Assembly: GCA_001780165.1 (NCBI GenBank)
Contig: MFFQ01000079.1
Coordinates: forward strand, 2,348 to 66,347
Length of the DNA stretch: 64,000 nt
From: Candidatus Eisenbacteria bacterium RBG_16_71_46
Lineage (GTDB): Bacteria > Eisenbacteria > RBG-16-71-46
Direction of reading: 5' to 3'
The position numbers were made by a program, and so were the translations under genes. A model generated the notes under the pieces. The model was given only the letters and a program-made list of their open reading frames with translations, ran no database searches and was not told the DNA's origin. Shown here piece after piece: positions 1,788 to 54,901 of this stretch (position 1 is the first letter of the stretch; each line of letters begins with the position of its first letter).

Positions 1788-1802
1788 CGGGCGCCCATGC
1801 GA

Positions 1803-1831: not shown

Positions 1832-1860
1832 GTGTGCGGAAGCGGCGAAACTCGTTTGGC

Positions 1861-11940: not shown

Positions 11941-11956
11941 CGGGAGGAGACATCCG

Positions 11957-13161: not shown

Positions 13162-13193
13162 CCGGAACCGGCGTCCTCGAGGAGACCTCCGTC

Positions 13194-36100: not shown

Positions 36101-36191
36101 GCGCGGACACCGCGCCGATCACGATCACGCACAGGATCATCATCACCGCCGTCACCGGCCGGCGCAGGCTCCAGCGCGGGAGGTTCACCAC
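33156..36191 (-). CDS. RND efflux transporter permease (HAE1 family, MdtC/AcrB-like)
   Basis: The 1011 aa ORF begins MVNLPRWSLRRPVTAVMMILCVIVIGAVS...LPDVDFPGLDIEIPYPNA. It has 12 TM segments and two large periplasmic loops. The conserved TM4 region MMGLMLAVGLLVDNAVVVLE is present. Confidence 0.95.
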   Translation of the reverse strand: MVNLPRWSLRRPVTAVMMILCVIVIGAVSAPRLPLAFLPDVDFPGLDIEIPYPNALPAQVEEEITRPAEEALATLSRVRAIHSWSSPNSANIYVQFDWGEDVEPLRVEAREKLERIRDQLPADVDRIRVNSFRSSDIPVLECRISATRDLSQSYELLDRHVADPLRRVPGVAKVELYGVEPPEIRIDFRLDALRRHGVDAEVVLARLDAANHSVSAGQIRRPGETMPLRIVNQFASLDDIESFPVGARGLGLADVARVAYAEPDLDYGRHLDRTRAVGLNVIKESGANTVDVATRARRVLTEMKRDPLLEGIQVLTFTDQAEEIQNSLRGLMQSGLVGAVLATGVLFFFLRRLTATLVVALAIPVSLLAACALLFFTGRSLNILSMMGLMLAVGLLVDNAVVVLESIERLRHKGRGRLRAALEGSREVLPAVITSTATSVIVFLPLVLGGRTEITTWIGEVGRTIIFTLGCSLLLSLTAIPLAMGRVLPAGVSPRIGAVEWLAARYHVLLDWTLRHRPLTLGAGVLLFAVSVAAFIPVDKSAFTGTRVEAVQIRYEFADNLNYREVERYVSRVEDWIQDRRDSLHVKSTYSYFTNNMAITRAYLAAGWADDDGAQQVRKMLRDGLPSLPGLKLSLRGDDDNSGPSRLGVRLFGDPGPRLDDLAAEVRRRLTLVSGLTDVELGGQKGRQEVQVAVRGDRAARHGLTTAGVAQAVALFFRGRPLARYRGPEGEVQITARLANEDRERLDRLRDLPLGGADGQVVPLAAVADFRTVETPASIQRQQRRSVVTVAGNYAASQGGQVRKAATQQLKAMNFPPGYSWSFGMGLEEESQTQQEMLVNLLLALVLVYLVMAALFESLLHPFAIMFALPFAFVGIAWVCLLTGSPFNLMAQIGLLILVGIVVNNGVVLLYHVHQLRGRGLGREQAVLEAARDRLRPILMTTTTTILGLLPLALGQNRVGDVLYFPLARTVIGGLASSTLLTLILVPCLYTALEDGQRLIARVWRQGPRAA

Positions 36192-39200: not shown

Positions 39201-39417
39201 CGCCCACGCCCTCCTCCACCGGGCGGGTCACGAACTGCTCGACGTCCGCCGGGGCCGCGTCGGGGAGGTCGGTGCGGACGGTGAGCGAGGGGTAGGAGAT
39301 GTTGGGCAGCAGGTCCACCGCGAGGCGCGAGGCCGCCACCAGCCCGAACACCACGATGCCCGCGGTCGCCATGAACACGGTGATCGGGCGGCGGATCGAG
39401 GCGTCTGCCAGCCGCAT
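36259..39417 (-). CDS. RND efflux transporter permease (HAE1 family, MdtB/AcrB-like)
   Basis: The 1052 aa ORF begins MRLADASIRRPITVFMATAGIVVFG...LPNISYPSLTVRTDLPDA. It carries GGLALGVGMLVDNSIVVLESIF. It is the second RND paralog in tandem. Confidence 0.95.
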   Translation of the reverse strand: MRLADASIRRPITVFMATAGIVVFGLVAASRLAVDLLPNISYPSLTVRTDLPDAAPADVEQFVTRPVEEGVGVVPGLVRMHSVSRPGQSEVTLEFASGTRMDLASLAVREKLDLVTLPREARRPALLRFDPSLDPIMRLRLAGGGNLKRLRRIAEQTVQRDLEGVAGVAAVKVSGGEEEEIQVEVDAARLNAVGLTVGDVTRRLGEENINLAGGSLTEGRSEYLVRAVNQFLAPEEIGGVVLATRPDGIVRVSDVATVARGARDREVVARVGGEESVEIAVYKEGDANTVTVARAVRRRLDRLQLSPEMRLVTVADQSRFIQAAIGDVMSAAVVGGLLAILVLFAFLHDLRTTLIIGLSIPVSVLATFVIMYRFGLSLNLMSLGGLALGVGMLVDNSIVVLESIFRKREEGLGPVAAASQGAGTVATAVAASTFTTVAVFLPLVFVEGLAGQLIRDQALTISFSLLASLVVALTLVPTIAALAARRRAGTADAAPSLPPGRWTGFLGWAAYLAVFVPRLVIRGMGRLGRGSAPVVGRLLVPFDAGYGALSRAYPRLLARALARPRAVLGLSAAALVLAVLMGLMLPRDLFPSFTQGEFRFNVTLPAGSALEVTDETLDRLTRAVKDDPRVRFAYSSAGQTDLSAFAGSAREANRGQVAVVMKRASDRRGEEAVAATLRREMDRIPGLTYEFERPGLLTFSAPLEAEVYAYDLDTLATLAATVAQRMSAVRGVEDVETSVRLGDPEVRIAFDRDRLAAMSLDPASASRLVRNAVQGEAATQFSDLERKLDVRVRASEDQRSLVSALAQLEVGRNRGSSVPLAAVARLAVERGPGDIRRIGQQRAAVVSANLEGRDLASAAAEIQGALDALPLPPGARVTLAGQNRELGESFASLRFALLLAVFLVYLVMASQFESLLHPFVVMFSLPLALIGVVFTLFATSTPLSIMVFIGLVVLAGIVVNNAIVLVDYARQLRVQGAPKIQALIQAATVRLRPILMTTLTTVLGLLPMVVGIGEGSELRAPLAITLIGGLAFSTLLTLIVIPVVYATVDRSS

Positions 39418-39478: not shown

Positions 39479-40591
39479 CTACAGGGTCACCGAGCGGATC
39501 TTCGCCCCCGGCTTGAGCCCGCCCTGGCCGACCGTGACCACGCTGTCGCCCGCGGAGAGCCCGGAGAGGATCTGGGCGGTGTCGTTCTCCACCGCCCCGA
39601 GCGTGACCGGAACGCGCACCACGCTGTCGCCGCGGGCCACGAAGACGAAGGATTCGCCGTCCTCCTGGACCACGCCGCGCCGCGGCATCAGCAGCGCGTC
39701 GGTGAAGGCGCCGGTCTTGAGCCGCACCCGGGCGAACGCGCCCGGCCGCAGCTCGCCGGCCGGATTGGGCAGCTCGAGCGTCACCTTGAACGTGCCGTTG
39801 CTGCGGTCCACCGTGGGGTTGACCAGCGCCACGCGCGCGCGAATCTCCCGGCCGGGGTGCGCGTCCATGGTCAGGCCCGCTTCCTGCCCGACGTGGACCC
39901 GCGTCAGCTCGCGCTCCGGAAAGTAGAGCGGCGCGCGCAGCGGGTCGAAGTCGATCAGCCGGAAGCACTCCTTGCCGACCGGCACCGTCTCGCCGAGGCT
40001 GATCAGCCGATCCACCACCCGGCCCGCGAACGGAGCGGTGAGGCGCGTCTGGGACAGGTCGTAGCGCGCCTGCTCGAGCTCCACCCAGGTATTGCGCCGC
40101 TTGAGCTCGAGGTCGTCCATTTCCTTCTTGCTCAGGTAGTTCTGCTCGACGAGCTGCCGGCCCCGCTCCAGCTCGCGCTCGGCCATCTCCAGGGCGAGCT
40201 GGGTGCGCTCGAGCGCCAAGCGGGCCTCGGTGTCCTCGAGGCGCGCCAGCACCTCGCCCTTTTTCACCCACTGCCCCTCCTCAACCCCCAGCGCCACGAC
40301 CTGGCCGGCGCGGCGGGCGACCAGCACGGCGGAATGGCGCGCCTCGAGCGTGGTCGTGGTCTCGAGGAAGGTGGCGATCGCGCCGGCGCCCACCGCGGAC
40401 AACTCGACCGGCACCGGGAGCGGGGCGTCCTTGTCGGACTTCTTCTTGTCCTTCGAGGCGTTCCCGTTGGCGTTGCGGGCGACGAGCGCCCCGCCCGCGA
40501 GTGCCCCCAGGGCCAGCGTGGCCATCACCGACCAGAGCACGATCCGTCGCGAGCGGCGTTTCGCAACCTGCTGTTCCATCGGGACCTCCAT
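39479..40591 (-). CDS. efflux RND transporter periplasmic adaptor subunit (MFP/HlyD family)
   Basis: The 370 aa ORF has an N-terminal TM anchor, a lipoyl-like motif GQVVALGVEEGQWVKKGEVLARLED, a coiled-coil hairpin and beta-barrel domains. Confidence 0.9.
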   Translation of the reverse strand: MEVPMEQQVAKRRSRRIVLWSVMATLALGALAGGALVARNANGNASKDKKKSDKDAPLPVPVELSAVGAGAIATFLETTTTLEARHSAVLVARRAGQVVALGVEEGQWVKKGEVLARLEDTEARLALERTQLALEMAERELERGRQLVEQNYLSKKEMDDLELKRRNTWVELEQARYDLSQTRLTAPFAGRVVDRLISLGETVPVGKECFRLIDFDPLRAPLYFPERELTRVHVGQEAGLTMDAHPGREIRARVALVNPTVDRSNGTFKVTLELPNPAGELRPGAFARVRLKTGAFTDALLMPRRGVVQEDGESFVFVARGDSVVRVPVTLGAVENDTAQILSGLSAGDSVVTVGQGGLKPGAKIRSVTL

Positions 40592-40844
40592 GACCGGCGC
40601 GCGCTCCCGATTCCGGGCGCCCGGGCGGCTCCGAAGCGGGTCGAGTCCAGCGGGCGGCGGCGCGCCGGCCGATGTCGAACCCGTCCCCCGGGCACGACCG
40701 GGGGGGTCGCGGGAGCGGGTCCTGGTGATTACGCGGCGGCGCGGACGAGAGTTTCACCCCGGCCTGTCATCGCCGCAAGCCCGGGATCGGCAGAGCCAGG
40801 GCGCCCGCCGGCCCGGCGCCCCGGGCGTGACCCCGATCTCGGGG

Positions 40845-41609
40845 TCATGGCCAGCGGCCGAAGTCCCACTCCAGGTGGAGCACCGGCCCGTGACCCTCAT
40901 CCTGCCAGGATTCGAGCACGCGGTCGGTCAACAGCGTGCTCGCCGGGTAGGAGCGGAACGGCTCCTCCCAGGTCCAGGCGCGGTAGCCGAGCGCGATGGT
41001 GAACGGGCGCGAGCGGCCCCGGAGCCCGAGCGTGAAGTTGCCCTCGGCCACTTCGGGCTTCTCGCGAATGCGCTCGGAGTTGAGGTACGGCAGTGCCGTG
41101 ATCCCGATCGCGAAGTCGACCTCCACGAACGCGCCGGGCCGGCCGGGTCGGCTGCGGAAGAAGCTCCCGAACACCGCGTCGCTGATCCCGTGCGAGCGAA
41201 GCGCGGGCCCCAATCCCTCGGGCAGCGTCACGCGCAGGTCCCGATAACCCACGAACACGCCGAACGGGCCTCCGACCCCGAGATCGACGCCGAGATCGCG
41301 GCGCCGTCCGGCGCCGTCGTCGAAGGCGGACGACGCGAGACCGGCACGGCCGCGAAGGAACAGCGCACGGTACCGGCCCGTGAGGCTTGCGTCCGCGCCC
41401 GGGCCGAAGCGGAGCCTGGTGCGGGCGACCACTTCCGGATCCCAATAGCCGCCCCCGCGCTGATGCGCGTAGGCGAGCAGTTCCGACCGCCATGCCTCGT
41501 AGTGGGGGCGCACCTCGCATGCCAGGCGCAGCGGGGCGTCCGCAGCGCCGACCACCGGCGCCGAGACGCACAGCACCACGAGGGCCAGCCAGCACACGCG
41601 GTCGCTCAT
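40845..41609 (-). CDS. secreted hypothetical protein (possibly a small outer-membrane protein)
   Basis: ATG at 41609 follows a GGAGG RBS. The signal peptide is MSDRVCWLALVVLCVSAPVVGAAD. The protein is Gly/Arg/Phe-rich with alternating strands. I recognise no family. The upstream 110 codons of the track ORF have no coding character. Confidence 0.55.
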   Translation of the reverse strand: MSDRVCWLALVVLCVSAPVVGAADAPLRLACEVRPHYEAWRSELLAYAHQRGGGYWDPEVVARTRLRFGPGADASLTGRYRALFLRGRAGLASSAFDDGAGRRRDLGVDLGVGGPFGVFVGYRDLRVTLPEGLGPALRSHGISDAVFGSFFRSRPGRPGAFVEVDFAIGITALPYLNSERIREKPEVAEGNFTLGLRGRSRPFTIALGYRAWTWEEPFRSYPASTLLTDRVLESWQDEGHGPVLHLEWDFGRWP

Positions 41610-41839
41610 GCGGCCTCCGAGCGGATGGGCCAGGTCGTGCTGCGATCCCGTCCCACCGCGGCCTGGGAGGGCACGCATCGGTCGTGCCCGGACCTTCGCC
41701 CGCCGCCGCCGTCGAGGAATCCGCTTGACAGCAGGCGGCTTGCGGGCCCTCGCTCCCGGAGCCGGCGCGGCGCGCCGCTCTCCGGCGCGTCTGCCAGAAT
41801 GTCGGACCGCCTGCCGCGCCGCGGGCCCCCGCTGGCTCG

Positions 41840-43246
41840 CTAGACGGGAGCCGCCGGCTCCCCGAGGGGCTCCGCTCAGCAGTACCAGGGCTCGGTGAGG
41901 AACGGCACCGGCGGTCGCCTGGGCGCGCGCGCGGTCCACGCCAGCGCGCGCGCGTGCCGGCCGGCGGCGGCCTCGGCCAGGGCGCGGGCGCGCGCGAACA
42001 CCGCCCCGCGCAGCTCGCCCCGGGCGCTCGCCGCCGCCACCATCGCCTCCACCTCCCGCTGCAGGCGGTCCACGCCGGGGTCGGCGTGCCGCCAGGGATG
42101 AACCAGGCGCGCCTCGTCGAAGGGCTCCACGAGGTCGCGCACCTCGGCCAGGTCGAGCAGGCGCGAGCCCGCCGGCACCAGCAGGCGGATCGCGAGCTGG
42201 ACCGGGGCGACGCTCTCCACCAAGTCCAACTCGTCGAGGTTGTCGAGCAGCTCGAGGTAGCCCGCGCGCGTGGTCCAGGGGTGGAACGCGACGAAGGTGG
42301 GATGAAAGTGCAATCCGGCCTCGCGCAGCAGCGCCACGGCCTCGACGAAGTCCGCCCGGGTGTGCCCCTTGTCGAGCAACGCCAGCACCCGATCGTCTAC
42401 CGACTCCACCGCGCTGGTGACGAACAGGCAGCCGGTCTCGCGCAGGGTCGGGAGGTGCTGGCGATGGCGCAGCAGGTGCTCGATCTTGATGGTGACGTCG
42501 TAGGTGAGGCGTGGGTGCTCGGCGTGCAGCGCCCGCACCAGCGGCAGCACGTGCCCGGGCCCGTTGAAGAAATCCGGGTCGCCGAAGGTGACGTGCTCGG
42601 CCCCGGCCGCCACCTGGCGGCGGACGTCCTCCAGCACGATTTCGCGCTGGACGATGCGAATGCGTCCCTGGTAGACCGGCACCACCGGGCAGTGGCGGCA
42701 GAGGTGCCGGCAGCCGCGGCTGGCCTCGGTGTAGCCCACCACGCGCGCCCGTCCGTCACCGCGCTCGAGGCGGGCGTAGCGCTCGAGCGCGGGCAGCGCA
42801 CCGCGCTCGGGCACCCGGAACTCGAGCCGCTCGGTGGGCGGCCCCGGCGCGGCGGGCGGCGCGGGGACGTCCTCCCCGGCGAGGTGGCGCGCGAGGCGCA
42901 CGAGGTCGGCCTCGTACTCCGCGCCGAGCACGGTATGGACCCCGAGGCCGCGCAGGTGCGCGGCGTTCATTGGCGCGTAGAGGCCGTAGGCGCACAGGTG
43001 CGCCCGCGCGTGGAGCGCGCGCACGCGCGGGATCTCGCGCGCGGCGAGGCGCGTGGCGGCGTGCATCGGCAGGTGGAACGCCACCAGGCCGGCCGCGCGC
43101 ACCGCCTCCGGGTCGAGTGCCTCCAGCGCCAGATCGAGGCAACGCACGGTGAAGCCCGCCTCCCCCAGCCAGGCCGCGGGCGAGGCCAGCCCGAACGGCT
43201 GGCGGCCGAGGTCGTAGGTCGAGACCAGGAGGATGGTGCGCATCAT
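41840..43246 (-). CDS. radical SAM selenoprotein with C-U-A-E-P tail (UGA 41876-41878 read as selenocysteine); B12-binding-like N-domain
   Basis: The rSAM cluster motif is CRHLCRHC (CX3CX2C). The track ORF ends ...FLTEPWYC at TGA. The same frame continues GCG GAG CCC (AEP), then LGEPAAPV and TAG at 41840-41842. A stable hairpin lies 13 nt after the UGA. Confidence 0.8.
41846..41862 (-). promoter_or_regulatory. SECIS-like stem-loop downstream of the in-frame UGA
   Basis: On the mRNA, GGGAGCC-GGC-GGCUCCC forms a 7 bp perfect stem (or 6 bp with a 5 nt G-rich loop). It starts 13 nt 3' of the UGA, the position expected for a bacterial SECIS. Confidence 0.5.
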
Positions 43247-43315
43247 TCCACGTCGGGCGTCGGCACGGCGCGGCGGGCAGCCGGCGGCAACCGCGCCGGC
43301 TCGCCCCGGGCGCGC

Positions 43316-43909
43316 TCAGGCCAGCGGGGACTGGCCTCCCTTGGACGGCCGGTAGTAGGGATTGGAGCCGCCGGCATGATCCGTGGAGTCCACGATCTCG
43401 CGGATGCCGGGCACCGCCTCGCGGATGCGCACCTCGATGCCCTGCTTGAGCGTGACGTCCACCATGCCGCAGCCCTGGCAGCCGCCGCCCAGCGCGATGT
43501 AGGCGACGTCGTCGCGCACGTCGAGCAGCGTGACGAAGCCGCCGTGCGAGGCCACCGCGGGGTTGATATCGCGGTCGATCACCTCCTGCACCGCCCGGGC
43601 TCTCGGGTCGGTCCACAGCGGGTTGGGATTCTCGATCTTGAAGCCGCCGCCCTGGGCGGTCTCGACGTAGTCGACCGAGGCGCCCGCGAGATGGGTCGCG
43701 CTCTCGGCGTCCACCAGCACCGTGAACCCGCCGGCGTCGATTGCGGTGTCGCCCGCGCCGCGCTCGGAAAGCGGCACGAAGCGCAGCACGTAGGTGAAAC
43801 CGTTGAGGCCGCGCCCGCCGATGCCGAAGCGCAGGGCCAGGCCCTCGCGCTTCTCGGCCGCGATCAGCTCCCGGATCTTCTCGCTCGCCTTCTCGGTGAT
43901 GGTCACCAT
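43316..43909 (-). CDS. nfuA: NfuA-type Fe-S cluster carrier (degenerate A-type domain + Nfu domain)
   Basis: ATG at 43909 gives the 197 aa protein MVTITEKASEKIRELIAAEKREGLALRFGIGGRGLNGFTY..., a HesB/IscA-like fold without the Cys triad. The C-terminal Nfu domain reads HGGFVTLLDV...IALGGGCQGCGMVDVTLKQGIE, with a CXXC motif. Confidence 0.85.
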   Translation of the reverse strand: MVTITEKASEKIRELIAAEKREGLALRFGIGGRGLNGFTYVLRFVPLSERGAGDTAIDAGGFTVLVDAESATHLAGASVDYVETAQGGGFKIENPNPLWTDPRARAVQEVIDRDINPAVASHGGFVTLLDVRDDVAYIALGGGCQGCGMVDVTLKQGIEVRIREAVPGIREIVDSTDHAGGSNPYYRPSKGGQSPLA

Positions 43910-45240
43910 CGTCGCTCCGCCCCCGCATCGGCCCGAACGCCCGGCGCCGCGCCCGGACCGGGTTGGATGTCGAACTCGAGCCAGCGGTGCGCCTCGCGCA
44001 GCGCCGCCTCGACCTGCTCCGGCGCGCCGCCGCGGGCGAAGATGAAGCCGAGGTAGCGCGCCCCCTCGGGCAGCGGCACCAGCTCGTCCCCCACCGGTAT
44101 CGTGATGCGCACGTCCTCGATCCCGGCCACCGCCCGCGCCGCCTCCACGCCGCGCACCCCCGCCAGCGTGCCGGCGCGCGGGATCGGGATCATCATCACC
44201 CCGGCGGCGGCGCGCTCGCGCTCGAGCCCGCCGGACTCGAGTCCCAGCGCCGCGCCGAGGATCACCTCCTCCAGCGAGCGGCCCTCGCCGAAGCGCAACA
44301 CCCGCGAGCATAGCCCGCCGATGGAGCGCGGGGCAATCTCCAGCAGGTGGGCCTCGCCCGCGTGATGGCGCAGCTCGGCGTGCACCGGGCCGTCGGAGAG
44401 CCCGAGCGCGGCCACCCCCGCCGCCGCGCGCCCCTCCACCGCCGCGCGCGCCGCGGCCGGCAGCCGCGACGGGGTGACGTAGATCGTCTCCTCGAAGAAC
44501 GGTCCCTCGAGCGGATCGGGCTTGTCGAAGACGGCGAGCACCCGCGGCACGCCACCCGTGACCAGCCCCTCGACCGCCACCTCCACGCCGGGGAGGTAGC
44601 TCTCGACCAGCAGGTGGCGCGCCAGCTCGTCGCCGGGCCGCGCCACCTCGGGGCGCCCGAGCAGCGCGGCGACCCGGCGGAAGGCCGCGGCGAACTGCTC
44701 CGGATCGTCGGCGCGGATCACGCCGCGGCTGGCGGCCAGCCCGAGCGGCTTGAGCACGCAGGGGAACTCCACCTCGCGGGCCAGGGCGAGCGGATCGGCG
44801 TCGAGCGCGAAGCGGTGGAAGCGGGGCGTGGGGATGCCGGCGGCGGCCAGCGCCCGGCGCATCCGGTACTTGTCGCGCGCGGCCGCCACCGCCTCGGGGG
44901 GATGGTGCGGCAGGCCGAGCGCGCGCGCGGCGAGCGCCGCGGTGAGGACCCCCTCGTCGTCGGCCGCGAGGATCGCCGCGAGCGGCCGGCGCGCGGCGAA
45001 GCGGCGGATGACCTCGACCGCGACCTCGGGCGCCGAAAAGTCGAGCGTCAGGTGCCCGTCGGGGTTGAAGCCCGCGAGCGCCTGCGGTCGCTCCGATCCC
45101 ACCGTGAGCGGCGCTCCCAGCCGTTGCGCCGCTTCGACGAACGCTCCGGCGCGATAGGACTGCGTGGTGACGAGCAGGAGCACGCGCCCCGGGCGTCTCG
45201 CCGGAACGACTCCACCCCCCTCACTCCAGTAGCGGGTCAC
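43903..45240 (-). CDS. ATP-grasp domain protein (carboxylate-amine ligase type), substrate unknown
   Basis: The 445 aa ORF has a pre-ATP-grasp region RVLLLVTTQSYRAGAFVEAA. ATP-grasp blocks include DKYRMRRALAAAGIPTPRF, FPCVLKPLGLAASRGVIRAD and LLVESYLPGVEVAVEG. The start is GTG. The 3' end overlaps the nfuA-like start by 7 nt. Confidence 0.8.
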   Translation of the reverse strand: MTRYWSEGGGVVPARRPGRVLLLVTTQSYRAGAFVEAAQRLGAPLTVGSERPQALAGFNPDGHLTLDFSAPEVAVEVIRRFAARRPLAAILAADDEGVLTAALAARALGLPHHPPEAVAAARDKYRMRRALAAAGIPTPRFHRFALDADPLALAREVEFPCVLKPLGLAASRGVIRADDPEQFAAAFRRVAALLGRPEVARPGDELARHLLVESYLPGVEVAVEGLVTGGVPRVLAVFDKPDPLEGPFFEETIYVTPSRLPAAARAAVEGRAAAGVAALGLSDGPVHAELRHHAGEAHLLEIAPRSIGGLCSRVLRFGEGRSLEEVILGAALGLESGGLERERAAAGVMMIPIPRAGTLAGVRGVEAARAVAGIEDVRITIPVGDELVPLPEGARYLGFIFARGGAPEQVEAALREAHRWLEFDIQPGPGAAPGVRADAGAERRW

Positions 45241-45348
45241 GGGCCCTGCTCCCCCGGCGACGTCTCGACGCCGATTCCGGCGTGACTCCCGGCGCGTGGC
45301 ATGGCACCCGCGCCGTGGAGCCCGCCGGCTGTGCGCGGCGGCGTGCGA

Positions 45349-46134
45349 CTACGAGCGGCCCGGCTGGAGCAGGCCGAAAACAGCGCCCTGCGGATCCATC
45401 AGCACCGCGAACGACCCCACCCGCGGCAGCGTCATCGTCGGCGCCAGCACCCGGGCGCCGAGCCCGCTCGCGCGCTGCACCGTCTTCTCGCAGTCCTCGA
45501 CACCGAAGTACGTGAGCCAGCTCGGGGGCGCCTCCCCCATCTCCTTGGGCTTCGGCATCATCCCCGCGGCCTGGGTCTCGCCGCGCCGGAACACCGTGTA
45601 CACCATGGTCTCCATCGGCTGGAGCTTGGCCTGCCATCCGAACAGCCCAGTGTAAAACGCTTCCGCCGCCTTCGTGTCGCCGGTCACCAGCTCGGTCCAG
45701 GTGGCCGCACCGGCCTCGTTCGTGACGCCCACGCCGATGTGTTTCTTCGCCTGCCAGAGCGCGATCGTCGCGCCGGTCGGATCCTGCACCACCGCCATGC
45801 GGCCGACGTCCATGACGTCCATTGGCTCCATCATCACCTTGCCGCCAAGAGTGCGCGCTTTCGCGACGGCGTGATCCACGCTCTCGACCGCGACGTAGTT
45901 CATCCAGTGCGAGGGAATGCCCTGCGCGCGCATCTCGGGGGAGATCTGGTAGAGGCCGGCGGCGTCCTTCTCGCCCTTCTCGAGCATGCTATAGGTGCCC
46001 GACTCCCCCATCGGCATCTCGCGGACGCTCCATCCGAACAGCGTGGTGTAAAACGTCCTTGCCGCCGCCTGGTCGGTGGTGCCGAGCTCGAACCAGCAAA
46101 ACACCCCCGGTGCGTTCGTCGTGACTTGAGCCAT
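45349..46134 (-). CDS. two-domain VOC (glyoxalase/bleomycin-resistance/dioxygenase) family protein
   Basis: ATG at 46134 follows a GGAGGAGG RBS. The 261 aa protein has two repeats of F.W.EL.T.D...A..FY..LFGW...........Y.........AG......... The rest of track ORF 45349..46863 overlaps egtD out of frame. Confidence 0.85.
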   Translation of the reverse strand: MAQVTTNAPGVFCWFELGTTDQAAARTFYTTLFGWSVREMPMGESGTYSMLEKGEKDAAGLYQISPEMRAQGIPSHWMNYVAVESVDHAVAKARTLGGKVMMEPMDVMDVGRMAVVQDPTGATIALWQAKKHIGVGVTNEAGAATWTELVTGDTKAAEAFYTGLFGWQAKLQPMETMVYTVFRRGETQAAGMMPKPKEMGEAPPSWLTYFGVEDCEKTVQRASGLGARVLAPTMTLPRVGSFAVLMDPQGAVFGLLQPGRS

Positions 46135-46202
46135 GACCTGTCCCTCCTCCGGTGGGGTCCGATGCGTGACGGGGTGGAGGTTAGCATCCGGCGCGCCGGA
46201 AC

Positions 46203-47192
46203 TCAGGCGGCGATCAGCAGCGTCTCGGCGAACGCCCACTGCTGGTCGATCCACCGGCCACCTTCGACGCCGAAGCCCGTGCGCCGGCCGATCTCGCGCG
46301 CCTCGCCCGCCGCGTACTTGTGGGAACTCTCGGTCCAGATGGTCTCGCCCGGCGCGAAACGAACCCGGAGACCCGCGGCCGGCACCTGCACCTCCTGGGG
46401 CGAGGCGGCGCGCAGGTGCATCTCGACGCGGCGCTCGCTCGCGTCGTAGCGCACCGCGTGGGCGAAGGCATCGAGGTCGAAATCCGCGCCCAGCTCGCGA
46501 TTGATCCGGCCCAGCAGGTTGAGGTTGAAGGCCGCGGTGACCCCCGCGGCGTCGTCGTAGGCCGCCAGCAGCCGCGGCACCGGCTTTTCGAGATCGGTGC
46601 CGAGCAGCAGGCCGTCTCCCGGCAGCAGCGACCGCCGCACCTGGCGCAGGAACGACTCGGCCGCCGGCCGGTCGAAATTGCCGATGGTGCTGCCGAGGAA
46701 GAGCAACAGCAGGCGATGGCCCGCCGGCCGGCGCCGCGCGACGTCGCCGAGCCCGCCCAGGTAGTCGCTCTCGATGCCCTCGAAGCGCAGCGATGGAATC
46801 CGGTCCAACTCGCGCTCGCAGTGGCGCAGCGCCGCCGCCGAGATGTCGATGGGAAAGTAGCACGTCAGCGGCTGCCGGCGCGCCAGCGCCTCGAGCAGCC
46901 AGCGCGTCTTGCGCCCGCTGCCGCTGCCGAGCTCGCTCACGATCAGCGGGCCGGGGATTCGGCCCACGATCTCGTCCGCCCGCATCCGCAAGATGCGCTC
47001 GTCGGCCGCCGTGAGACCGTACTCCGGGAGCTGGCTGATCGCCTCGAACAGCGCAGAGCCGACGTCGTCGTAGAGGTATCTCGAGGGCAGCGTCTTCTGT
47101 CCGGACCGGGTCAGCCCGGCGCGCACGTCGGCGGCGAACTCCGCCGTGCCCTGAGCTTCGCCGCGGGCCAGATCTTCCGCCTGCCGGATCAC
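46203..47192 (-). CDS. egtD: L-histidine N-alpha-methyltransferase (ergothioneine biosynthesis)
   Basis: GTG at 47192 overlaps the egtB stop (GTGA). Motifs are LPSRYLYDDVGSALFEAISQLPEYGLT, VSELGSGSGRKTRWLLEAL, FLGSTIGNF and WTESSHKY. Confidence 0.9.
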   Translation of the reverse strand: MIRQAEDLARGEAQGTAEFAADVRAGLTRSGQKTLPSRYLYDDVGSALFEAISQLPEYGLTAADERILRMRADEIVGRIPGPLIVSELGSGSGRKTRWLLEALARRQPLTCYFPIDISAAALRHCERELDRIPSLRFEGIESDYLGGLGDVARRRPAGHRLLLLFLGSTIGNFDRPAAESFLRQVRRSLLPGDGLLLGTDLEKPVPRLLAAYDDAAGVTAAFNLNLLGRINRELGADFDLDAFAHAVRYDASERRVEMHLRAASPQEVQVPAAGLRVRFAPGETIWTESSHKYAAGEAREIGRRTGFGVEGGRWIDQQWAFAETLLIAA

Positions 47193-48505
47193 CGCGTCAC
47201 CAGCCGGAACGTGGTGCAGGCGTACGGGTAGTGGGGCTGGAACCAGTTGCGGAAGGAGCGCCGCAGCATGCAGGCCGCGGTGCGCGGTGAACCGCCCTTC
47301 ATGACGAAGTGCTGGCCGTCGAAGAAGTTGGCCGAGTAGCCCGCGTAGAAGGGAAACGGCACGAACCCGTCGAACGGGCCGAAGGTCGTCGCGGTCCACT
47401 CCCAGCCGTTGCCCACCAGGTCCGCGATCCCGAACGCGCTGTCGCCGGCCGGGAACGATCCCACCGGCGCCGGATCCCACCCGTGGAAGTCGAAGTTGCC
47501 GTGACGGGCCTCCGGCTCGTCCTCGCCCCACGGGTAGGCGCGCTCGTGGCCGTCGGGCGTACCGTACGCGGCGCGGTGGAACTCCGCCTCGGTGGGCAGC
47601 CGCTTCCCGGCCCAGCGCGCGTAAGCGCGCGCCTCGGCCAGACTGACGACCACCGGCGCGTCGAGCGGGAGCTGAGTCTCGTGAAACATGCCCCGCAGGT
47701 ACCAGCCGTCGGAGCGCCGCAGCCAGTCGTGCGGATTCTGGCTCGGCCGGCGCGATTGCCACGCCCAGTCGTCATCCGCCCACCAGCGCCGGTTCTCGTA
47801 GCCGCCGGCGCGGAGGAACTCGAGGAAACCGCCATTGGTCACCTGGGTGAGGTCGATCTGGAACGAAGGGACCTCGACCACGTGTTCGTCGAACTCGTTG
47901 TCCCAGCCGAAGGCCGTGTCGCGTCCGAGCCCGAGCGCGGCGCGGCCGGCGGGGATGCGGACCATGCGCCGCTTGAGTGCGCGCGGCGGCGGGGGTGCTA
48001 CCAGCGCCGGCGGGCGTTTGTGATTGGTCGGCAATTGGTGGAGCAGGTAGGCCAGCGTCTCGGCGTGCATCAGCCGGTGCTCGATCGCCACCTGGATCAG
48101 GGTGCCGTCGCGCAGCTCCGGCGCCGCCTCGCCGGCGTGGTCGAGGGCGCGGTCCACGGCCTCGCGGGCCCGGCGGTTGTACTCGCGCACCTTCTCCACC
48201 GGGGGCCAGTCCGAAGCAGGTTCGTTGGGCAGGCCGCCGTCCACCGGATCGATGCCGAAGGCGAACAACTGGTCGAACGCCGAGTCGAAGGAGGGCCTGC
48301 CGAGCGCGCCGCGCGGGATCAGGTTCCAGTCGAAGGCCTCGACGTGGCCGAGGTAGAAGATCAGGCGGTGCCGCTCGGGAATCGGCCGCTCGTGCAACGC
48401 CCCCGGGGCCAGCAGGTCGAACAGCTCGTCGGTGCGCGAGCGGGCGTCGGCGAGACGCTCGGCGAGCAGCGTGCGATCCTCGATGATCGTGCGTGCAGTC
48501 GTCAT
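47189..48505 (-). CDS. egtB: ergothioneine biosynthesis sulfoxide synthase EgtB (DinB-like + FGE-sulfatase domains)
   Basis: A GGAGG RBS precedes the start. The DinB iron-site region is IFYLGHVEAFDWNL...HRLMHAETLAY. The FGE-type domain has RLPTEAEFHRAA, VGNGWEWTAT and the terminal RSFRNWFQPHYPYACTTFRLV. Confidence 0.9.
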   Translation of the reverse strand: MTTARTIIEDRTLLAERLADARSRTDELFDLLAPGALHERPIPERHRLIFYLGHVEAFDWNLIPRGALGRPSFDSAFDQLFAFGIDPVDGGLPNEPASDWPPVEKVREYNRRAREAVDRALDHAGEAAPELRDGTLIQVAIEHRLMHAETLAYLLHQLPTNHKRPPALVAPPPPRALKRRMVRIPAGRAALGLGRDTAFGWDNEFDEHVVEVPSFQIDLTQVTNGGFLEFLRAGGYENRRWWADDDWAWQSRRPSQNPHDWLRRSDGWYLRGMFHETQLPLDAPVVVSLAEARAYARWAGKRLPTEAEFHRAAYGTPDGHERAYPWGEDEPEARHGNFDFHGWDPAPVGSFPAGDSAFGIADLVGNGWEWTATTFGPFDGFVPFPFYAGYSANFFDGQHFVMKGGSPRTAACMLRRSFRNWFQPHYPYACTTFRLVTR

Positions 48506-48591
48506 GACGGCTTCCTCCCCGGGACCATCGCGACCTCACGAAGCACCAATGCGCGGCCGCGCGGTGAATTTCCCTTAGGATGGGCGGGACC

Positions 48592-50148
48592 TCAGGTGGG
48601 TTCGCTCGGAAGCCGCAGCCCGCGCGGAATCGCGATCCGGTCCAGCAGTTCGAAGCCCCACTGTACCAGAAGGGCCAGCAGGGCCGCAGGAATCGCCCCT
48701 TGAAGGATGAGCGAAGTGCGCCGCAGCTGGATGCCCGACAGGATCGGGTCACCGAGCCCGCCCGCGCCGATCAGCGCCGCCAGCGTGGCGGTCCCGACGT
48801 TGATCACGGCGCTGGTCTTGATCCCCGCCATGATCGCGGGCGAGGCCATCGGCAGCCGCACGCGGAAGAGCTGTGCGCCGGGCGAGAGCCCGATCGCCGC
48901 CGCCGACTCCGTGAGCGCGGCCGGGATGGTGGCGATGCCGGTGTAGGTGTTGCGCACGATCGGCAGCAGGCTGTAGAGAAACAGCGCCACCAGCGCCGGC
49001 CGCACCCCGATCCCCAGCAGCGGGATGAGGAAGGCGAGCAATGCCAGCGACGGGATGGTCTGCAGCAGCCCCGCGGCCGAGAGCGTCACCGCCGCCAGCG
49101 GGCGCGAGCGCGTGGCCAGCACGCCGAGCGGCACCCCGACCAGGATCGCGGCCAGCAGCGAGATCGCCACCAGCCGCAGGTGCTGCGCGGTGTCGGCGAG
49201 CAGCGCCCGCCACAGACCCTCGCGCGCGGCGGTCGCACCCCCGGCCGCGCCCAGCGCCTCGAGCAGCAGCGAGTCGGCCGACTGCGCGAACGGCACCCGC
49301 TCGAGCACCACGCGGGCGTTGGCCCGGATCATCGCGGCCTCGTCGATGCGGCCCTCCAGGCGCCGCATCGCCGCGAGCGCCCGTGGCTCGCGGTGCTCGA
49401 GGTCGAGCCGGTAGAGCCACACCGCGTCGTAGCGGGGAAAGAAGCCGCGGTCGTCGTCGAGCACGCGCAGGTCCAGGTGCTCGATCTGCGCGTCCGTGGT
49501 GTAGATGTCGATCACGTCCACCTTGCCGCTGGCGATCGCCTCGTAGGCGAGTTCGTGCTGGATGCCGCGCACGTTTCGCGACGAGAGGTCGTAACGGCGG
49601 GCGAGCCCGGGAAATCCGTCCTCACGTCCGATGAACTCGTGGGTAAGCCCGAAGCGCAGGTCCGGATGGCGGGCGAGGTCGGAGATGGTGCGCAGTTGGT
49701 AGCGGCGCTGGGTGTCCGCGCTCACCGCCAGCGCGTAGCTGTCGTTGAATCCGAGCGGGGCGCTGATGCCGATGCCCCGCGCGGCGAGGGTGCGGCGCAT
49801 CGCCTCGAGCGACGGGCGGCCGGGATCCTGCAGCAGCACCTCGGCGATGGTCCCGGTGTACTCGGGATAGACGTCCACGTCTCCCGCGCGCAGCGCCTGG
49901 TAGACGATCTCGGTTCCGCCGAGGTTGCTGCGGTGGCGCACCTCGGGCACGCCGGTCGCGCGGGTCAGTGAGGCCAGCCCCTCGCCCAGGATCCAGGACT
50001 CGGGAAACGCCTTGGACCCCACGGTCACCGTGCCCGCGGCGGCCGCGGGGACTGCCGCGACCAGCGCGAGCGCGAGCCCGGCCACCAGCGCGAGTGCGAG
50101 CCGGGCCGTCGTCGCGAGCGCGAGCCCGGCCGCCGTCGCGCGCCTCAT
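48592..50148 (-). CDS. quaternary-amine (betaine/choline/ergothioneine-type) ABC transporter, fused substrate-binding domain (N-terminal) + permease (C-terminal)
   Basis: ATG at 50148 overlaps the ATPase stop (ATGA). The OpuC/OpuB-like SBD has TVGSKAFPESWILGE, GGTEIVYQALRAGDVDVYPEYTGT and FPRYDAVWL. The permease has TIPSLALLAFLIPLLGIG and the EAA-like region ESAAAIGLSPGAQLFRVRLPMASPAIMAGI. Confidence 0.9.
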   Translation of the reverse strand: MRRATAAGLALATTARLALALVAGLALALVAAVPAAAAGTVTVGSKAFPESWILGEGLASLTRATGVPEVRHRSNLGGTEIVYQALRAGDVDVYPEYTGTIAEVLLQDPGRPSLEAMRRTLAARGIGISAPLGFNDSYALAVSADTQRRYQLRTISDLARHPDLRFGLTHEFIGREDGFPGLARRYDLSSRNVRGIQHELAYEAIASGKVDVIDIYTTDAQIEHLDLRVLDDDRGFFPRYDAVWLYRLDLEHREPRALAAMRRLEGRIDEAAMIRANARVVLERVPFAQSADSLLLEALGAAGGATAAREGLWRALLADTAQHLRLVAISLLAAILVGVPLGVLATRSRPLAAVTLSAAGLLQTIPSLALLAFLIPLLGIGVRPALVALFLYSLLPIVRNTYTGIATIPAALTESAAAIGLSPGAQLFRVRLPMASPAIMAGIKTSAVINVGTATLAALIGAGGLGDPILSGIQLRRTSLILQGAIPAALLALLVQWGFELLDRIAIPRGLRLPSEPT

Positions 50149-50963
50149 GGGGCCGTCTCCGCCGCACTCCCCTCGAGCGGATGCTGGGCGCGGATGAATT
50201 CGGTCACGAACGGGTCGGCCGGCCGCTCGAGCAGATCCGCCGGAATGCCGCGCTGGACCACGCGGCCGCCGCGCATCAGCGCGATCTCGCTGCCGAGGTA
50301 GGTCGCCTCGGCCATGTCGTGGGTCACCAGCAGCACGGTCTTGCGCAAAGTCTGGAACACGCGCCGGAGATCGGTTTGCAGGCGCGCGCGGGTCAGGGGG
50401 TCGAGTGCTCCCAGCGGCTCGTCGAGCAGCAGCACCGCGGGGTCGAGCATCAGGGCCCGCATCAGCCCCACGCGCTGGCGCTGGCCGCCGCTGAGTTGCG
50501 CCGGGTAGCGGGCGAGCAGATCGGGGGTGATGCCGGTGAGGGCCGTCAGCTCGTCGAGTCGCGCGCGGACGCGCGCGGCGTTCCACCCCAGGTCGTCCGC
50601 CACCAGCGCGACGTTCTGGGCCGCGGTGAGGTGCGGAAACAGGCCGCCTTCCTGGATGACGTAGCCCATGCGCAGGCGCAGGGCGCGGCGGCTCTCCGGC
50701 GCCATCGGCGTTTCGCCGATCCGCACGCGGCCATGATCCGGCGCGAGCAGTCCGACCACCAGGCGCAGCAGCGTGGACTTGCCGCAGCCGCTCGGTCCGA
50801 TCAGGACCAGGGTGGTGCGCGGCGCCACGACCAGCGACACGCCGTCGAGCGCGCGCTTGCCGCCGAAGCTCTTGACCAGATCCTCGACCGCGATCGGGAC
50901 CGCTTCGCCGCCGCCGGCCATCGCATCCCCGCCGTGAGGCGCGCCCACACCGCGCGCGGTCAT
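50145..50963 (-). CDS. quaternary-amine ABC transporter ATP-binding protein (no CBS tail)
   Basis: The protein has Walker A GPSGCGKST, the signature LSGGQRQRVGLMRA and Walker B VLLLDEPLGALD. ATG at 50963 overlaps the antiporter stop (ATGA). An alternative ATG lies at 50921. Confidence 0.9.
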   Translation of the reverse strand: MTARGVGAPHGGDAMAGGGEAVPIAVEDLVKSFGGKRALDGVSLVVAPRTTLVLIGPSGCGKSTLLRLVVGLLAPDHGRVRIGETPMAPESRRALRLRMGYVIQEGGLFPHLTAAQNVALVADDLGWNAARVRARLDELTALTGITPDLLARYPAQLSGGQRQRVGLMRALMLDPAVLLLDEPLGALDPLTRARLQTDLRRVFQTLRKTVLLVTHDMAEATYLGSEIALMRGGRVVQRGIPADLLERPADPFVTEFIRAQHPLEGSAAETAP

Positions 50964-52699
50964 TCGCCGCGCGGCGCCACGGCCGCGGCGCCCGCGCCCG
51001 GAGGCTCGCCATCCCGCTCCTCGCCCCCCTCGCGGGGCGTCCCGTCCTCGAGCGCCAGCAGCCGGGCGTCGATGTCCGCGAGGAGCTTTTCGTACACGTC
51101 CTGGCTCAGGGTGCCCTGGTGGAACGCCTGGAGAACCCGGTCCTTCTCGACGACGAGCAGATGGCGGCGCGCGCGCAGCATCTCTTCCTCGCGCAGGGCG
51201 CCTTCCTCCAGGTGCAGCGCCTGGATCCCCGCCTCGGCCCGCTCGATCCGGGCCTCGTACTCCTCGTGCAGTGCCGCCAGCACCTCCTGAGGCGCGTGCC
51301 GCGCGCGCGTCATCGATTCGACCTCGTTGAGCCCCGCGTTGGCGACCAGCAGCGCGCCGCGGGTCTGCTCGTAGAGCGCGCGCGACTCGCGGGGCCGCAC
51401 CACGCCGAGCCGGCGCAACAGCGGCGCCATCGTGAGGCCCTGGCCCAGGATCGAGATGATGACCACGCCGAAGGTGATGGTCACGAGCAGGTCGCGCTGC
51501 GGAAAGTCGGCCGGCAGGCTGAGTGCCAGCACCATGGACAGCCCGCCGCGCAGGCCGCCCCAGGCCATGACCACGCTCCAGCTGCGCGGCAGGCGGTCGC
51601 GGGTGAGCCCGAGCAGCCCCGAGGCCACCGCGATCACGATCGCCCGCCCGAGGGTGACGACCAGGAACGCCGCCACGATCGGCAGCCACGACGCCAGCAG
51701 CGCCCCGACCTTGACCTCGAACCCGATGAGCAGGAACACGATCGAGTTGAGGGCGAAGGCGACGTACTCCCAGAAGGTCTCCACCGCCACGCGGGTCGAG
51801 GGCGACATGCCGGTGCGCGCGGCGTAGTTGCCGCAGATCATGCCCGCCACCACCGTGGCGATCACCCCGGAGTCGTGGAACTGCTCCGCCGTGACGAAGG
51901 CGCCGTAGGCGGCGATCGTCGTAAGCGTGATCTCGATCATCGGGTCGTCGAGCCGGCGGATGACCTGCGAGACCGCCATCCCCACCGCGGCCCCGATCAA
52001 GGCACCGAGTCCCACGACACGCACGAAGTCCCCCGCCACCGCCCCGGCCGACACCGTCTCGCCGGCGATGAAGCCGAGGATCAGGGTGAAAAACACGATC
52101 GAGGTGCCGTCGTTGAGCAGGCTCTCGCCTTCCACCAGGGTGCCGAGCCGCTTGGGCGCGCCCAGCGACTTGAACAGCGCGACCACGGCGATCGGGTCGG
52201 TGGCGGCGATGATTGCGCCGAACACCAGCGCCAGGCGCCAGTCGAATCCCCCGCCGAATCGCAGGGCCTCGCCGAGCGGTGCCAGGATCACGGTGGTGAG
52301 CGCGATCGCCGCCACCACCCCGGGCACGGCCAGCGAGAAGATCGCGGTGCGGTTGCTCCAGAACTGCTTCCACGAGGTGTGATAGGCGGCCTCGAACAGC
52401 AGCCCCGGCAGGAAGATGGCGAACAGCAGCCGCTTGGTGAGGTGAGGCGGATCGAGCACGTGGAGCGAGCCGAGCAGCAGGCCCGCCAGCACCAGCGCCA
52501 CGGTGTAGGGTATGCGCCAGCGCCGGGCGGCGATGGCCACCGTGGTGGCGACCACGAAGAGCAGGATGAAGACGGTCTCGGCGTGCACCGCGCTAGTGTC
52601 CCGTCCCAGGAATCGCTTGACCACCAAGGCGCCCGCTGCGCCCGGCGGGCAAGGCGCGACGACGATGTCGTATCCTGGAGATACGTCGAGGAGGAGCAA
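50960..52699 (-). CDS. Na+/H+ (cation/proton) antiporter, CPA1/NhaP type with a cytoplasmic C-terminal domain
   Basis: The protein has about 12 TM segments, including FLPGLLFEAAY and AIIAATDPIAVVALFKSLGAP (the ATDP motif). The start is uncertain: TTG at 52699 in the track, with GTG at 52624 plausible. Confidence 0.85.
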   Translation of the reverse strand: MLLLDVSPGYDIVVAPCPPGAAGALVVKRFLGRDTSAVHAETVFILLFVVATTVAIAARRWRIPYTVALVLAGLLLGSLHVLDPPHLTKRLLFAIFLPGLLFEAAYHTSWKQFWSNRTAIFSLAVPGVVAAIALTTVILAPLGEALRFGGGFDWRLALVFGAIIAATDPIAVVALFKSLGAPKRLGTLVEGESLLNDGTSIVFFTLILGFIAGETVSAGAVAGDFVRVVGLGALIGAAVGMAVSQVIRRLDDPMIEITLTTIAAYGAFVTAEQFHDSGVIATVVAGMICGNYAARTGMSPSTRVAVETFWEYVAFALNSIVFLLIGFEVKVGALLASWLPIVAAFLVVTLGRAIVIAVASGLLGLTRDRLPRSWSVVMAWGGLRGGLSMVLALSLPADFPQRDLLVTITFGVVIISILGQGLTMAPLLRRLGVVRPRESRALYEQTRGALLVANAGLNEVESMTRARHAPQEVLAALHEEYEARIERAEAGIQALHLEEGALREEEMLRARRHLLVVEKDRVLQAFHQGTLSQDVYEKLLADIDARLLALEDGTPREGGEERDGEPPGAGAAAVAPRGE

Positions 52700-54472: not shown

Positions 54473-54901
54473 GACGACCTCCCGTGGGGAAGGACGATGC
54501 GTGGGAAGGAACGCGGCGAGAGGCTAGCACAGCCGACCCGCGCGTCCGCAGCCGGCGCGTCCGATGACGTCCCGGCGGTAGCGGGGCCGGCGTGAGTGCG
54601 GTCCCACGAGCATGGCTGCGCCCGCGCAGGTGCCGCGCGAGACCCGTCGCTCCACTTGCCCGCGAGCCGGGCCGGGGCTCGCCATCTGCCGGGCGCGGCA
54701 GGCCACATGCCAGATCGGCAGTCTTCCCACCTCGCAACGGCTCGTCGCACACCCGCGATCGCGATGCCTTGCGGGAAATTAGCGCGTCGCCCGACGAAAC
54801 GACCGGACTGGAACGACTCATGCTGGCCCGCTTGCGGACCGCCTCGGCCGGTCCTGCGATCGATGTCATCAAACCCCACGAACATGAGGAGGAATCGAGC
54901 C

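Follow-up and report, generated by a model that had tools for sequence, protein, structure and literature searches.

We analysed a 64,000-nt stretch of the genome of Candidatus Eisenbacteria bacterium RBG_16_71_46 (contig MFFQ01000079.1, positions 2,348 to 66,347), referred to here as the window, which has a G+C content of ~71% and carries a compact set of three genes on its minus strand. They encode an ATP-grasp ligase of the L-amino-acid-ligase (LAL) type, an NfuA-like Fe-S carrier and a radical S-adenosylmethionine (SAM) enzyme, hereafter rSAM, with the CUAEP tail of a predicted selenoprotein (Table 1). The ATP-grasp and NfuA-like genes overlap by 7 nt, sharing ATGGTGA, and 69 nt separate the NfuA-like stop from the rSAM ATG. 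An earlier annotation made from the sequence alone, the original prediction, had described this arrangement together with an in-frame TGA in the rSAM gene, a 108-nt gap between the stop of an upstream VOC gene at 45349 and the ATP-grasp GTG, and a 21-codon open reading frame (ORF) just ahead of the ligase. All of these coordinates and distances were borne out by direct reading of the sequence.

The rSAM protein scored 619.1 bits against NF040546, the model of the CUAEP/CCAEP-tail family (cutoff 500), with residues 5-456 aligned to profile positions 1-457 of 468. Its frame in the window ends as ...EPWYC-TGA-AEPLGEPAAPV followed by TAG, and so includes the C-[U/C]-A-E-P motif. At 84 related loci, ...EPW[YF]C is followed by TGA in 70 cases and by TGC or TGT in 14, and the peptide past the TGA (AEPT-x-x-Q...) is conserved across the 70 UGA-type loci. 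In these selenocysteine (Sec)-type genes a hairpin stem starts 14-18 nt past the UGA, and the residues encoded by the hairpin vary yet the pairing is kept (for example, GAGGAGC/GCUCCUU vs GGGACC/GGUCCC). The mean minimum free energy of a 30-nt segment was -10.8 kcal/mol in UGA-type genes as against -5.6 in Cys-type genes (Mann-Whitney p = 1.7e-8). Together, the tail conserved past the TGA in 70 loci, the Cys orthologues at the same site and the hairpin resembling a Sec insertion sequence (SECIS) only in UGA-type genes support Sec decoding, and on these grounds we take the window protein to be a bona fide member of the CUAEP/CCAEP-tail family and a genuine selenoprotein. We found no tRNA gene, hence no tRNA-Sec, in the window, and no selenium-utilisation gene was detected among the window ORFs scanned against families, a scan outside which the upstream ORFs (~1-28.7 kb) fall. 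Public predicted proteins of the family nearly all end at the Sec codon. On the megaplasmid of Thermomicrobium roseum DSM 5159 (NC_011961.1, 7935-9440; locus L089), the RefSeq coding sequence TRD_RS12835 stops at the UGA and the frame goes on as AEPLEDPSGPV..., so this entry probably represents a selenoprotein truncated in error.

The family is large and widespread. When one genome per species was scanned, at least 595 matches to the rSAM were confirmed, and the best 80 species matches fall in Acidobacteriota, Methylomirabilota, Chloroflexota, Latescibacterota, Verrucomicrobiota, Pseudomonadota, Actinomycetota, Calditrichota, Dormibacterota and others; 50%-identity representatives, searched exhaustively, comprised 594 clusters at E < 1e-30. 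Cultured carriers that we identified are T. roseum DSM 5159, Catenulispora rubra and Nonomuraea sp. NPDC050783. The radical SAM motif CX3CX2C is present as C179-x3-C183-x2-C186 (CRHLCRHC) and is invariant in 311 family members, in which C456 is conserved at 97%, C273 at 93%, C85 at 86% and C36 at 71%. We considered a MiaB-like three-Cys auxiliary-cluster site and found it not to be supported: some members lack C36 or C85, and near-invariance is confined to C273. An AlphaFold model of the protein without its Sec tail had a pLDDT of 83, with residues 438-456 below 50, and the C-terminal tail is probably flexible as judged from this model. The closest solved folds were AprD4 (best, TM 0.72), then TsrM, MgmA, OxsB and MiaB, in a search that could not rank ArsL, a characterised relative discussed below, since the copy of the PDB searched holds no ArsL structure. 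Haft and Gwadz called the family uncharacterised, saw the CU motif otherwise in HgcA, MerT and the SAO organometallic system, and discussed CU motifs as metal contacts. In the literature searched we found no function assigned to the CUAEP/CCAEP family and no pathway for the three-gene set.

Gene neighbourhoods were compared in two sets of loci, designated by L numbers. The first comprised 80 species-representative loci and four metagenome loci, compared by tblastn and all-against-all clustering; rSAM identity across phyla was 53-69% in this set. The second comprised 80 independent and more divergent metagenome loci, whose rSAMs are 43-52% identical to protein P0160, itself 41% identical to the window rSAM. 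An orthologue of the ATP-grasp ligase (43-66% identity) lay within 2.5 kb of the rSAM gene in 49 of the 80 species loci, or in 41 of 60 once loci short of flanking sequence are set aside. By phylum, the ligase stood beside the rSAM in 33/41 loci of Acidobacteriota, 2/2 of Latescibacterota and 2/2 of Verrucomicrobiota, and also in Methylomirabilota and Pseudomonadota. It may be co-directional and upstream, co-directional and downstream, or convergent. The window order of ligase, NfuA and rSAM recurs in L085, L002, L005, L006 and L008, and in L086 and L088, which came from a reciprocal look-up starting from three ATP-grasp homologues (the trio twice, ligase and NfuA once). Most Acidobacteriota show rSAM followed by the ligase, L049 and L082 an NFU1-like gene followed by rSAM and ligase, and further loci of this set an rSAM-DUF169-ligase order or convergent pairs. 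In the second set the rSAM and ligase genes were adjacent in 24 of 80 loci; of the 36 with enough flank, 17 had the ligase, 14 a short Nfu, 7 YggX, 21 at least one of Nfu and YggX, and 6 DUF169. This set added the order rSAM-short Nfu-ligase and YggX directly upstream of rSAM. DUF169 was present in 22 of ~170 loci overall.

The identities of rSAM and ligase to the window proteins co-vary (r = 0.59), and stop/start overlaps of module genes, seen in the window and in L086, suggest co-translation. The rSAM and the LAL-type ligase are thus co-inherited neighbours, a pair conserved across phyla, and an Fe-S or iron helper has been recruited beside the rSAM repeatedly, by non-orthologous proteins. 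The original prediction held that the three genes form a functional unit for which no pathway has been described. Both statements stood, as the trio recurs in three orders (ligase-NfuA-rSAM, rSAM-Nfu-ligase and NFU1-like-rSAM-ligase), the ligase co-occurs with CUAEP-tail orthologues across at least five phyla, Nfu or YggX adjoins them in many lineages, and the searchable literature contained no pathway with the trio. We are therefore confident that rSAM and ligase, often with Nfu, constitute a functional module.

The helper varies by lineage: some loci have a two-domain NfuA, others a short Nfu, an NFU1-like protein or YggX, the last confirmed as a member of the 'oxidative damage protection protein' family. 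Nfu domains orthologous to that of the window are among those encoded next to the rSAM in other lineages. The window protein has an A-type N-domain (PF01521, residues 2-96) without Cys and an Nfu domain (PF01106, residues 107-172) with CQGC, and scores 126 bits against the NfuA model TIGR03341, below its cutoff of 269. In E. coli, NfuA rebuilds the auxiliary cluster that LipA sacrifices. The window protein resembles NfuA, as a donor or repair factor for LipA and MiaB, in pairing a Cys-less A-type domain with a CXXC Nfu domain and in being encoded directly beside an rSAM gene; it differs from that system in that the partner elsewhere is a short Nfu, NFU1-like protein or YggX and that the rSAM lacks a universal Cys triad for an auxiliary cluster. 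At L087 (6001-8910), ligase and NfuA-like genes occur without a downstream rSAM gene, and a PIN/antitoxin pair takes that position, which suggests either a local rearrangement or a ligase and Nfu staying together without rSAM.

The ligase carries ATPgrasp_N (43.4 bits), ATP-grasp_4 (101.9 bits) and LAL_C2 (61.6 bits), all above the Pfam gathering scores, and reaches none of the curated NCBIfam cutoffs. Among proteins of solved structure it is closest to the L-amino acid ligase BL00235 (3VOT; E = 1.9e-39, residues 32-419 aligned to 18-409), and it also matches BacD (E ~1e-11). BL00235 makes Met-Gly and Met-Met, with Met as the N-terminal substrate (PMC6920838). The three-domain Pfam architecture is identical to that of the L-amino acid ligases BL00235, BacD/YwfE, RizA, DdaF and TabS, enzymes that make dipeptides, often antimetabolite dipeptides, from free amino acids and ATP. 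Unlike these, the window ligase belongs to an orthologous group of its own (39-67% identity) that travels with the rSAM. We predict from its sequence that it is an LAL-type enzyme with dipeptide-forming activity.

By sequence, the closest characterised relative of the window rSAM is ArsL (NF040542), the RCCLKC-tail rSAM of arsinothricin biosynthesis. Its model is the second best for the window protein, at 266.5 bits over residues 5-399, under the cutoff of 450, and an RCCLKC-tail protein shows 35% identity to the rSAM and has an H-x-x-F-x-D-x-D-F-x-N segment in common with it. The rSAM is laid out like ArsL, with a Rossmann-like N-domain, the CX3CX2C core and a C-terminal tail that is short and rich in Cys. 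In ArsL, SAM donates its 3-amino-3-carboxypropyl moiety (ACP) to form a C-As bond, and the C-terminal Cys motif binds the acceptor As(III) and is needed for product. There are differences, too. The window family has the tail W-[YF]-C-[U/C]-A-E-P-T (WYCUAEP in the window) instead of RCCLKC, which occurs in 0 of the best 150 representatives, and its W[FY]C[UC]AEP tail is kept down to 33% identity; it also has a ~45-residue helical insert before the tail that RCCLKC proteins lack. The latter have V, T and I at positions 273, 85 and 36 and are without His62, His185 and His295 of the CUAEP family, which is, with its 594 clusters, much larger than the ArsL family. RCCLKC-tail genes lie on Bacillales plasmids in ars islands (L090, B. 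cereus pBFR_2, 136-9116; L091, a Priestia megaterium plasmid, 3388-13573) that also encode an LAL-type ATP-grasp protein, a carboxymuconolactone-decarboxylase-family protein, an aquaporin, a CobW GTPase and ArsN1. As judged from these gene contents, arsinothricin-type amino acids may also be ligated into dipeptides in Bacillales ars islands. An arsM, arsR, acr3 and arsN context was found neither in the window row nor in the 160 sampled loci, where ArsR occurs in a few actinomycete loci only.

Other comparisons are more distant. The ArsL preprint names Dph2 as the one other type of enzyme known to generate an ACP radical from SAM, and it is without CX3CX2C and modifies a protein histidine. We detected no similarity to Dph2 in any family or structure search. 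In the diphthamide pathway, ATP-dependent amidation (Dph6) comes after Dph2. An adjacent Cys-Sec or Cys-Cys pair on a C-terminal tail is also found in MerA, which acquires Hg(II) via its vicinal C-terminal Cys tail, and in thioredoxin reductase, which shuttles electrons via a C-terminal Cys-Sec; here the likeness to the rSAM is one of motif and not of homology, and fold and chemistry are unrelated. The CU motifs of HgcA, MerT and the SAO system likewise resemble the rSAM tail in motif only.

Genes for amino-acid metabolism and for metals adjoin the rSAM in several lineages. Class I/II aminotransferases are found beside it in T. roseum DSM 5159 and Nonomuraea, and in L118, L136 and L172, the last from C. 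rubra, a recurrent neighbour is a DAP-type PLP decarboxylase. The order in C. rubra is MerR, MerB-like, ArsR, BTAD, rSAM, DUF169, ArsR, LAL ATP-grasp, decarboxylase and C39-ABC exporter, and its ligase is 39% identical to that of the window (E = 1e-68). MerB-like genes also neighbour the rSAM in Nonomuraea and in an Anaerolineales metagenome-assembled genome, and MerR and ArsR regulators occur in actinomycete loci. Five 90% clusters of proteins from independent samples, 60-100% identical (P0127, P0391, P0392, P0393 and P0394; L174:4792-6921), join a CCAEP-type rSAM to a MerB-like domain of the alkylmercury-lyase fold through a Pro-rich linker, and one of them lies beside a second MerB-like gene. 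The MerB-like domain of P0127 retains a C-x-x-D motif, which we take to be the catalytic Cys-x-x-Asp of MerB. Metal-related neighbours are rare outside Actinomycetota and Chloroflexota, and the window has none. Genes upstream in L086 were considered as an SbnA/SbnB-type diaminopropionate supply, a reading we rejected, as they are threonine-dehydratase-like, ornithine-cyclodeaminase-family and OsmC genes.

We hypothesize that the rSAM would cleave SAM reductively and, as ArsL does, join a carbon radical, most likely the ACP group, to a soft heteroatom. The latter could be S, Se or a metal or metalloid and would be held or relayed by the flexible Cys456-Sec457 with Cys273, which is specific to the family. 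This would yield a gamma-substituted 2-aminobutyrate, i.e. a methionine or homocysteine analogue, whose carboxylate the ligase would activate with ATP and condense with a second amino acid to give a dipeptide, and the Nfu-type protein would supply or repair the [4Fe-4S] cluster of an enzyme that is labile to oxygen or in part sacrificial. ArsL-like chemistry is proposed because ArsL is the second-best model and because of the 35% identity with its common segment and the conserved Cys273, Cys456 and Sec/Cys457; an amino-acid product because BL00235 uses Met, aminotransferases and decarboxylases are neighbours and an LAL-type ATP-grasp gene lies in the RCCLKC islands; and a link to soft metals or metalloids because of the MerB fusions and neighbours, the MerR/ArsR regulators and the CU motif in HgcA, MerT and SAO. 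That the module works on free amino acids and dipeptides rather than modifying peptides or proteins seems to us fairly probable. ArsL-like formation of a carbon-heteroatom bond by the rSAM is a tentative assignment to which we give rather less than an even chance. The model as a whole, in which an uncharacterised ArsL-like carbon-heteroatom enzyme makes an unusual amino acid and the ligase a dipeptide, independently of ergothioneine, is plausible, at a little short of even.

Several observations weigh against this model. The ligase is beside the rSAM in 0/8 Chloroflexota loci and is also absent there in Nonomuraea, Calditrichia and Dormibacterota, and 11 of the 36 well-flanked metagenome loci show no partner at all; the rSAM can therefore do without a neighbouring ligase, or else the ligase gene lies at another site. 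A score of 266 bits is far below the ArsL cutoff, rSAM enzymes at 35% identity often differ in reaction, and the regiochemistry of SAM cleavage cannot be read from sequence. The vicinal Cys-Sec could be a redox or hydrogen-atom-donor centre that does not bind substrate, and Nfu may be found nearby only because aerobes have to maintain a cluster sensitive to oxygen. Moreover, the window and most loci (Acidobacteriota, Methylomirabilota) are without nearby ars or mer genes or metal regulators, and their neighbours are housekeeping-like (AcnA, YggX, G6PD, glucokinase), which speaks against arsenic or mercury being the usual substrate.

The main rival is canonical chemistry, in which a 5'-deoxyadenosyl radical would modify a free amino acid or a dipeptide made by the ligase, for example by epimerisation, C-C or C-S bond formation or dehydration, with Cys-Sec as a hydrogen donor or redox pair. 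The canonical CX3CX2C motif, the sub-cutoff score of the ArsL model and the shortage of metal genes at most loci all favour it, as does the exchange of Sec and Cys at position 457, which is typical of redox-active residues. To our knowledge, none of AprD4, TsrM, MgmA, OxsB and MiaB, its closest solved folds, generates an ACP radical, but that fold search could not place ArsL, which is the nearest characterised homologue by sequence, and the MerB fusions and MerR/ArsR contexts are hard to square with a purely organic substrate. We judge canonical chemistry improbable while still taking it seriously. Those same contexts, with the MerB-like neighbours, the sister RCCLKC family in ars islands, the CU motif statistics of Haft and Gwadz and a report of DUF169 beside hgcA-like genes in Nitrospina, would suit a family that forms or processes a C-Hg or C-As-type bond for resistance or detoxification, the window copy being a remnant. 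However, MerB, MerR and ArsR occur in only a handful of the ~170 loci, and these belong nearly all to Actinomycetota or Chloroflexota, whereas the copies in the window, Acidobacteriota and Methylomirabilota sit among housekeeping genes; conservation as strong as that of the protein and its tail suits core physiology better than sporadic resistance, and the efflux pumps encoded downstream in the window belong to MdtBC-like multidrug types and do not clearly transport metals. We consider such a resistance role unlikely.

Two further readings came from the original prediction, which had placed the cassette either in a thiol/selenol small-molecule pathway linked to ergothioneine or in the modification of a ribosomal peptide. 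Its small-molecule element stands, in that amino-acid chemistry fits better than peptide chemistry, but neither the ergothioneine part nor the peptide reading found support. In the former, the ATP-grasp enzyme would stand in for EgtA by providing a gamma-glutamyl-type donor, and the substrate of the rSAM would be a thiol or selenol derived from hercynine. The cassette is indeed co-directional with egtB-egtD-VOC across the 108-nt gap, both in the window and in L085, and some neighbours elsewhere have an oxidative-stress flavour (YggX; OsmC in L086). The window EgtD scores 299.9 bits against TIGR03438 (cutoff 290.9), and the EgtB-like protein (DinB_2 plus FGE-sulfatase) scores near-equally for OvoA (264 bits), SenA (254) and EgtB (242), all below cutoff. 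However, tblastn found homologues of EgtB and EgtD at none of the other loci (0/84 and 0/80, within ~8-10 kb of the rSAM), and outside the window the adjacency occurs only in L085, which has 98% rSAM protein identity and an identical intergenic stretch where compared and is, being near-identical, not an independent observation. The egt adjacency is lineage-specific, and the conserved partner of the ligase is the rSAM, not EgtB. As the linkage is not conserved, a substitute for EgtA is without comparative support. A terminator and promoter scan gave no evidence in either direction. We regard an extension of the ergothioneine pathway as extremely improbable.

The peptide reading would have the ATP-grasp enzyme ligate an amino acid onto, or cross-link, a ribosomal peptide modified by the rSAM, with the 21-codon ORF MPRAGSHAGIGVETSPGEQGP as the precursor gene of a ribosomally synthesised and post-translationally modified peptide (RiPP). 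There is a precedent in PGM1 of pheganomycin biosynthesis, an LAL-related ATP-grasp enzyme that ligates an unusual amino acid to a ribosomal peptide, and in C. rubra two small ORFs and a C39-peptidase ABC exporter come after the decarboxylase (L172:9724-12295). There, ORFs of 57 and 47 aa flank the exporter, making this the single locus at which a peptide-linked product is conceivable. The conservation check on the 21-codon ORF, however, went against it: it has no counterpart upstream of the ligase in L002, L006 or L008, and with 303 ATG-started ORFs of at least 21 codons in the window (~4.7 per kb) its presence is no more than expected by chance. Gaps within the module are 50-170 nt, or the genes overlap, in most loci, which leaves no room for a precursor gene; family searches of the module proteins detected no leader-peptide-binding or RiPP recognition domain, and the best matches of the LAL-type ligase are ligases of free amino acids. 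A RiPP-like cassette is accordingly very improbable.

The module lies within a row of minus-strand genes running from 52.6 kb down to 33.2 kb, in the order Na+/H+ exchanger, ABC ATPase, OpuAC-permease fusion, EgtB-like, EgtD, VOC, ATP-grasp, NfuA-like, rSAM, secreted hypothetical protein, resistance-nodulation-division (RND) adaptor and two RND permeases (Table 1). The ABC ATPase and OpuAC-permease fusion could be a transporter of hercynine- or ergothioneine-type betaines. The VOC gene encodes a two-domain glyoxalase-fold protein, which we rejected as a member of the module because it had one weak match only, in L017. Its counterpart in L085 (7109-8023) is called as 304 aa and overlaps the ligase start, whereas the window gene ends cleanly (45349-46140); the 3' parts are identical, so a frameshift further upstream in the VOC gene of one of the two sequences is probable. 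The secreted protein matched no Pfam or NCBIfam family. For the downstream pumps a heavy-metal RND reading was rejected, given their MdtBC-like type; an RND adaptor and pump also come after the trio in L086. A promoter and terminator scan of 40500-49000 gave nothing above shuffle expectation and nothing intergenic. Rfam had no match in the window, and among 18 related loci it showed no riboswitch; the sole match there was a group II intron domain (RF02003, 92.5 bits) downstream of an rSAM-Nfu-ligase locus (L104:4331-4470, minus strand). Elsewhere in the window lie a multicopper oxidase related to PhsA/CueO (54596-57082, plus strand) and a large PDZ-containing protease-like protein (59636-62224, minus strand) with a weak match to the Trx7/PDZ (seleno)protein family (49 bits, cutoff 300).

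Table 1. Positions of the module genes and neighbouring features in the window
Feature	Position	Strand	Remarks
ATP-grasp ligase, LAL type	45240..43903	-	445 aa; GTG start; TGA 43905-43903; GGGGGAG 8 nt upstream
NfuA-like Fe-S carrier	43909..43316	-	197 aa; ATG 43909-43907
rSAM gene, predicted CUAEP-tail selenoprotein	43246..41840	-	468 aa including Sec457; ATG at 43246; TAG 41842-41840
UGA Sec codon (Sec457) of rSAM	41878-41876	-	in-frame TGA
SECIS-like hairpin of rSAM gene	41862..41846	-	GGGAGCC-GGC-GGCUCCC; stem starts 16 nt past U of UGA
21-codon ORF	45302..45237	-	TGA overlaps ATP-grasp GTG; judged not to be a gene
EgtB-like sulfoxide synthase	48505..47189	-	upstream neighbour, outside module
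EgtD	47192..46203	-	upstream neighbour, outside module
Two-domain VOC protein	46140..45349	-	upstream neighbour, outside module
ABC ATPase	~50964..50146	-	upstream of egtB-like gene
OpuAC betaine-type binding domain fused to permease	~50149..48592	-	directly upstream of egtB-like gene
Secreted hypothetical protein	40845-41600	-	~250 aa; apparent signal peptide; between rSAM and RND genes
MdtABC-like RND efflux system	39479-40591, 36259-39417, 33156-36191	-	downstream of rSAM

The family and the domain types were already known by name; the conserved module, its architectures, the MerB fusions and the parallel with the RCCLKC/LAL islands were not found in the literature searched. A large and strongly conserved family, usually of selenoproteins, thereby gains conserved partners in the ligase, the Nfu or YggX helper and DUF169, and in Actinomycetota also in MerB-like lyases and metal-sensing regulators, while a tempting link to ergothioneine is removed. 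Its nearest characterised relative, ArsL, is the only CX3CX2C enzyme known to make an ACP radical, and these partners together with the kinship to ArsL turn an anonymous family into a testable hypothesis of new carbon-heteroatom chemistry and a new natural dipeptide. We speculate, as an unlikely but consequential possibility, that the CUAEP/CCAEP family is a second and much larger branch of ArsL-type noncanonical rSAM enzymes, which would form a C-Se, C-S or C-metal(loid) bond on the Cys-Sec tail and, with the ligase, make a new organo-chalcogen or organometal(loid) amino acid and its dipeptide. If this is true, such a product would be common in the soil phyla Acidobacteriota, Methylomirabilota, Verrucomicrobiota, Chloroflexota and Actinomycetota.

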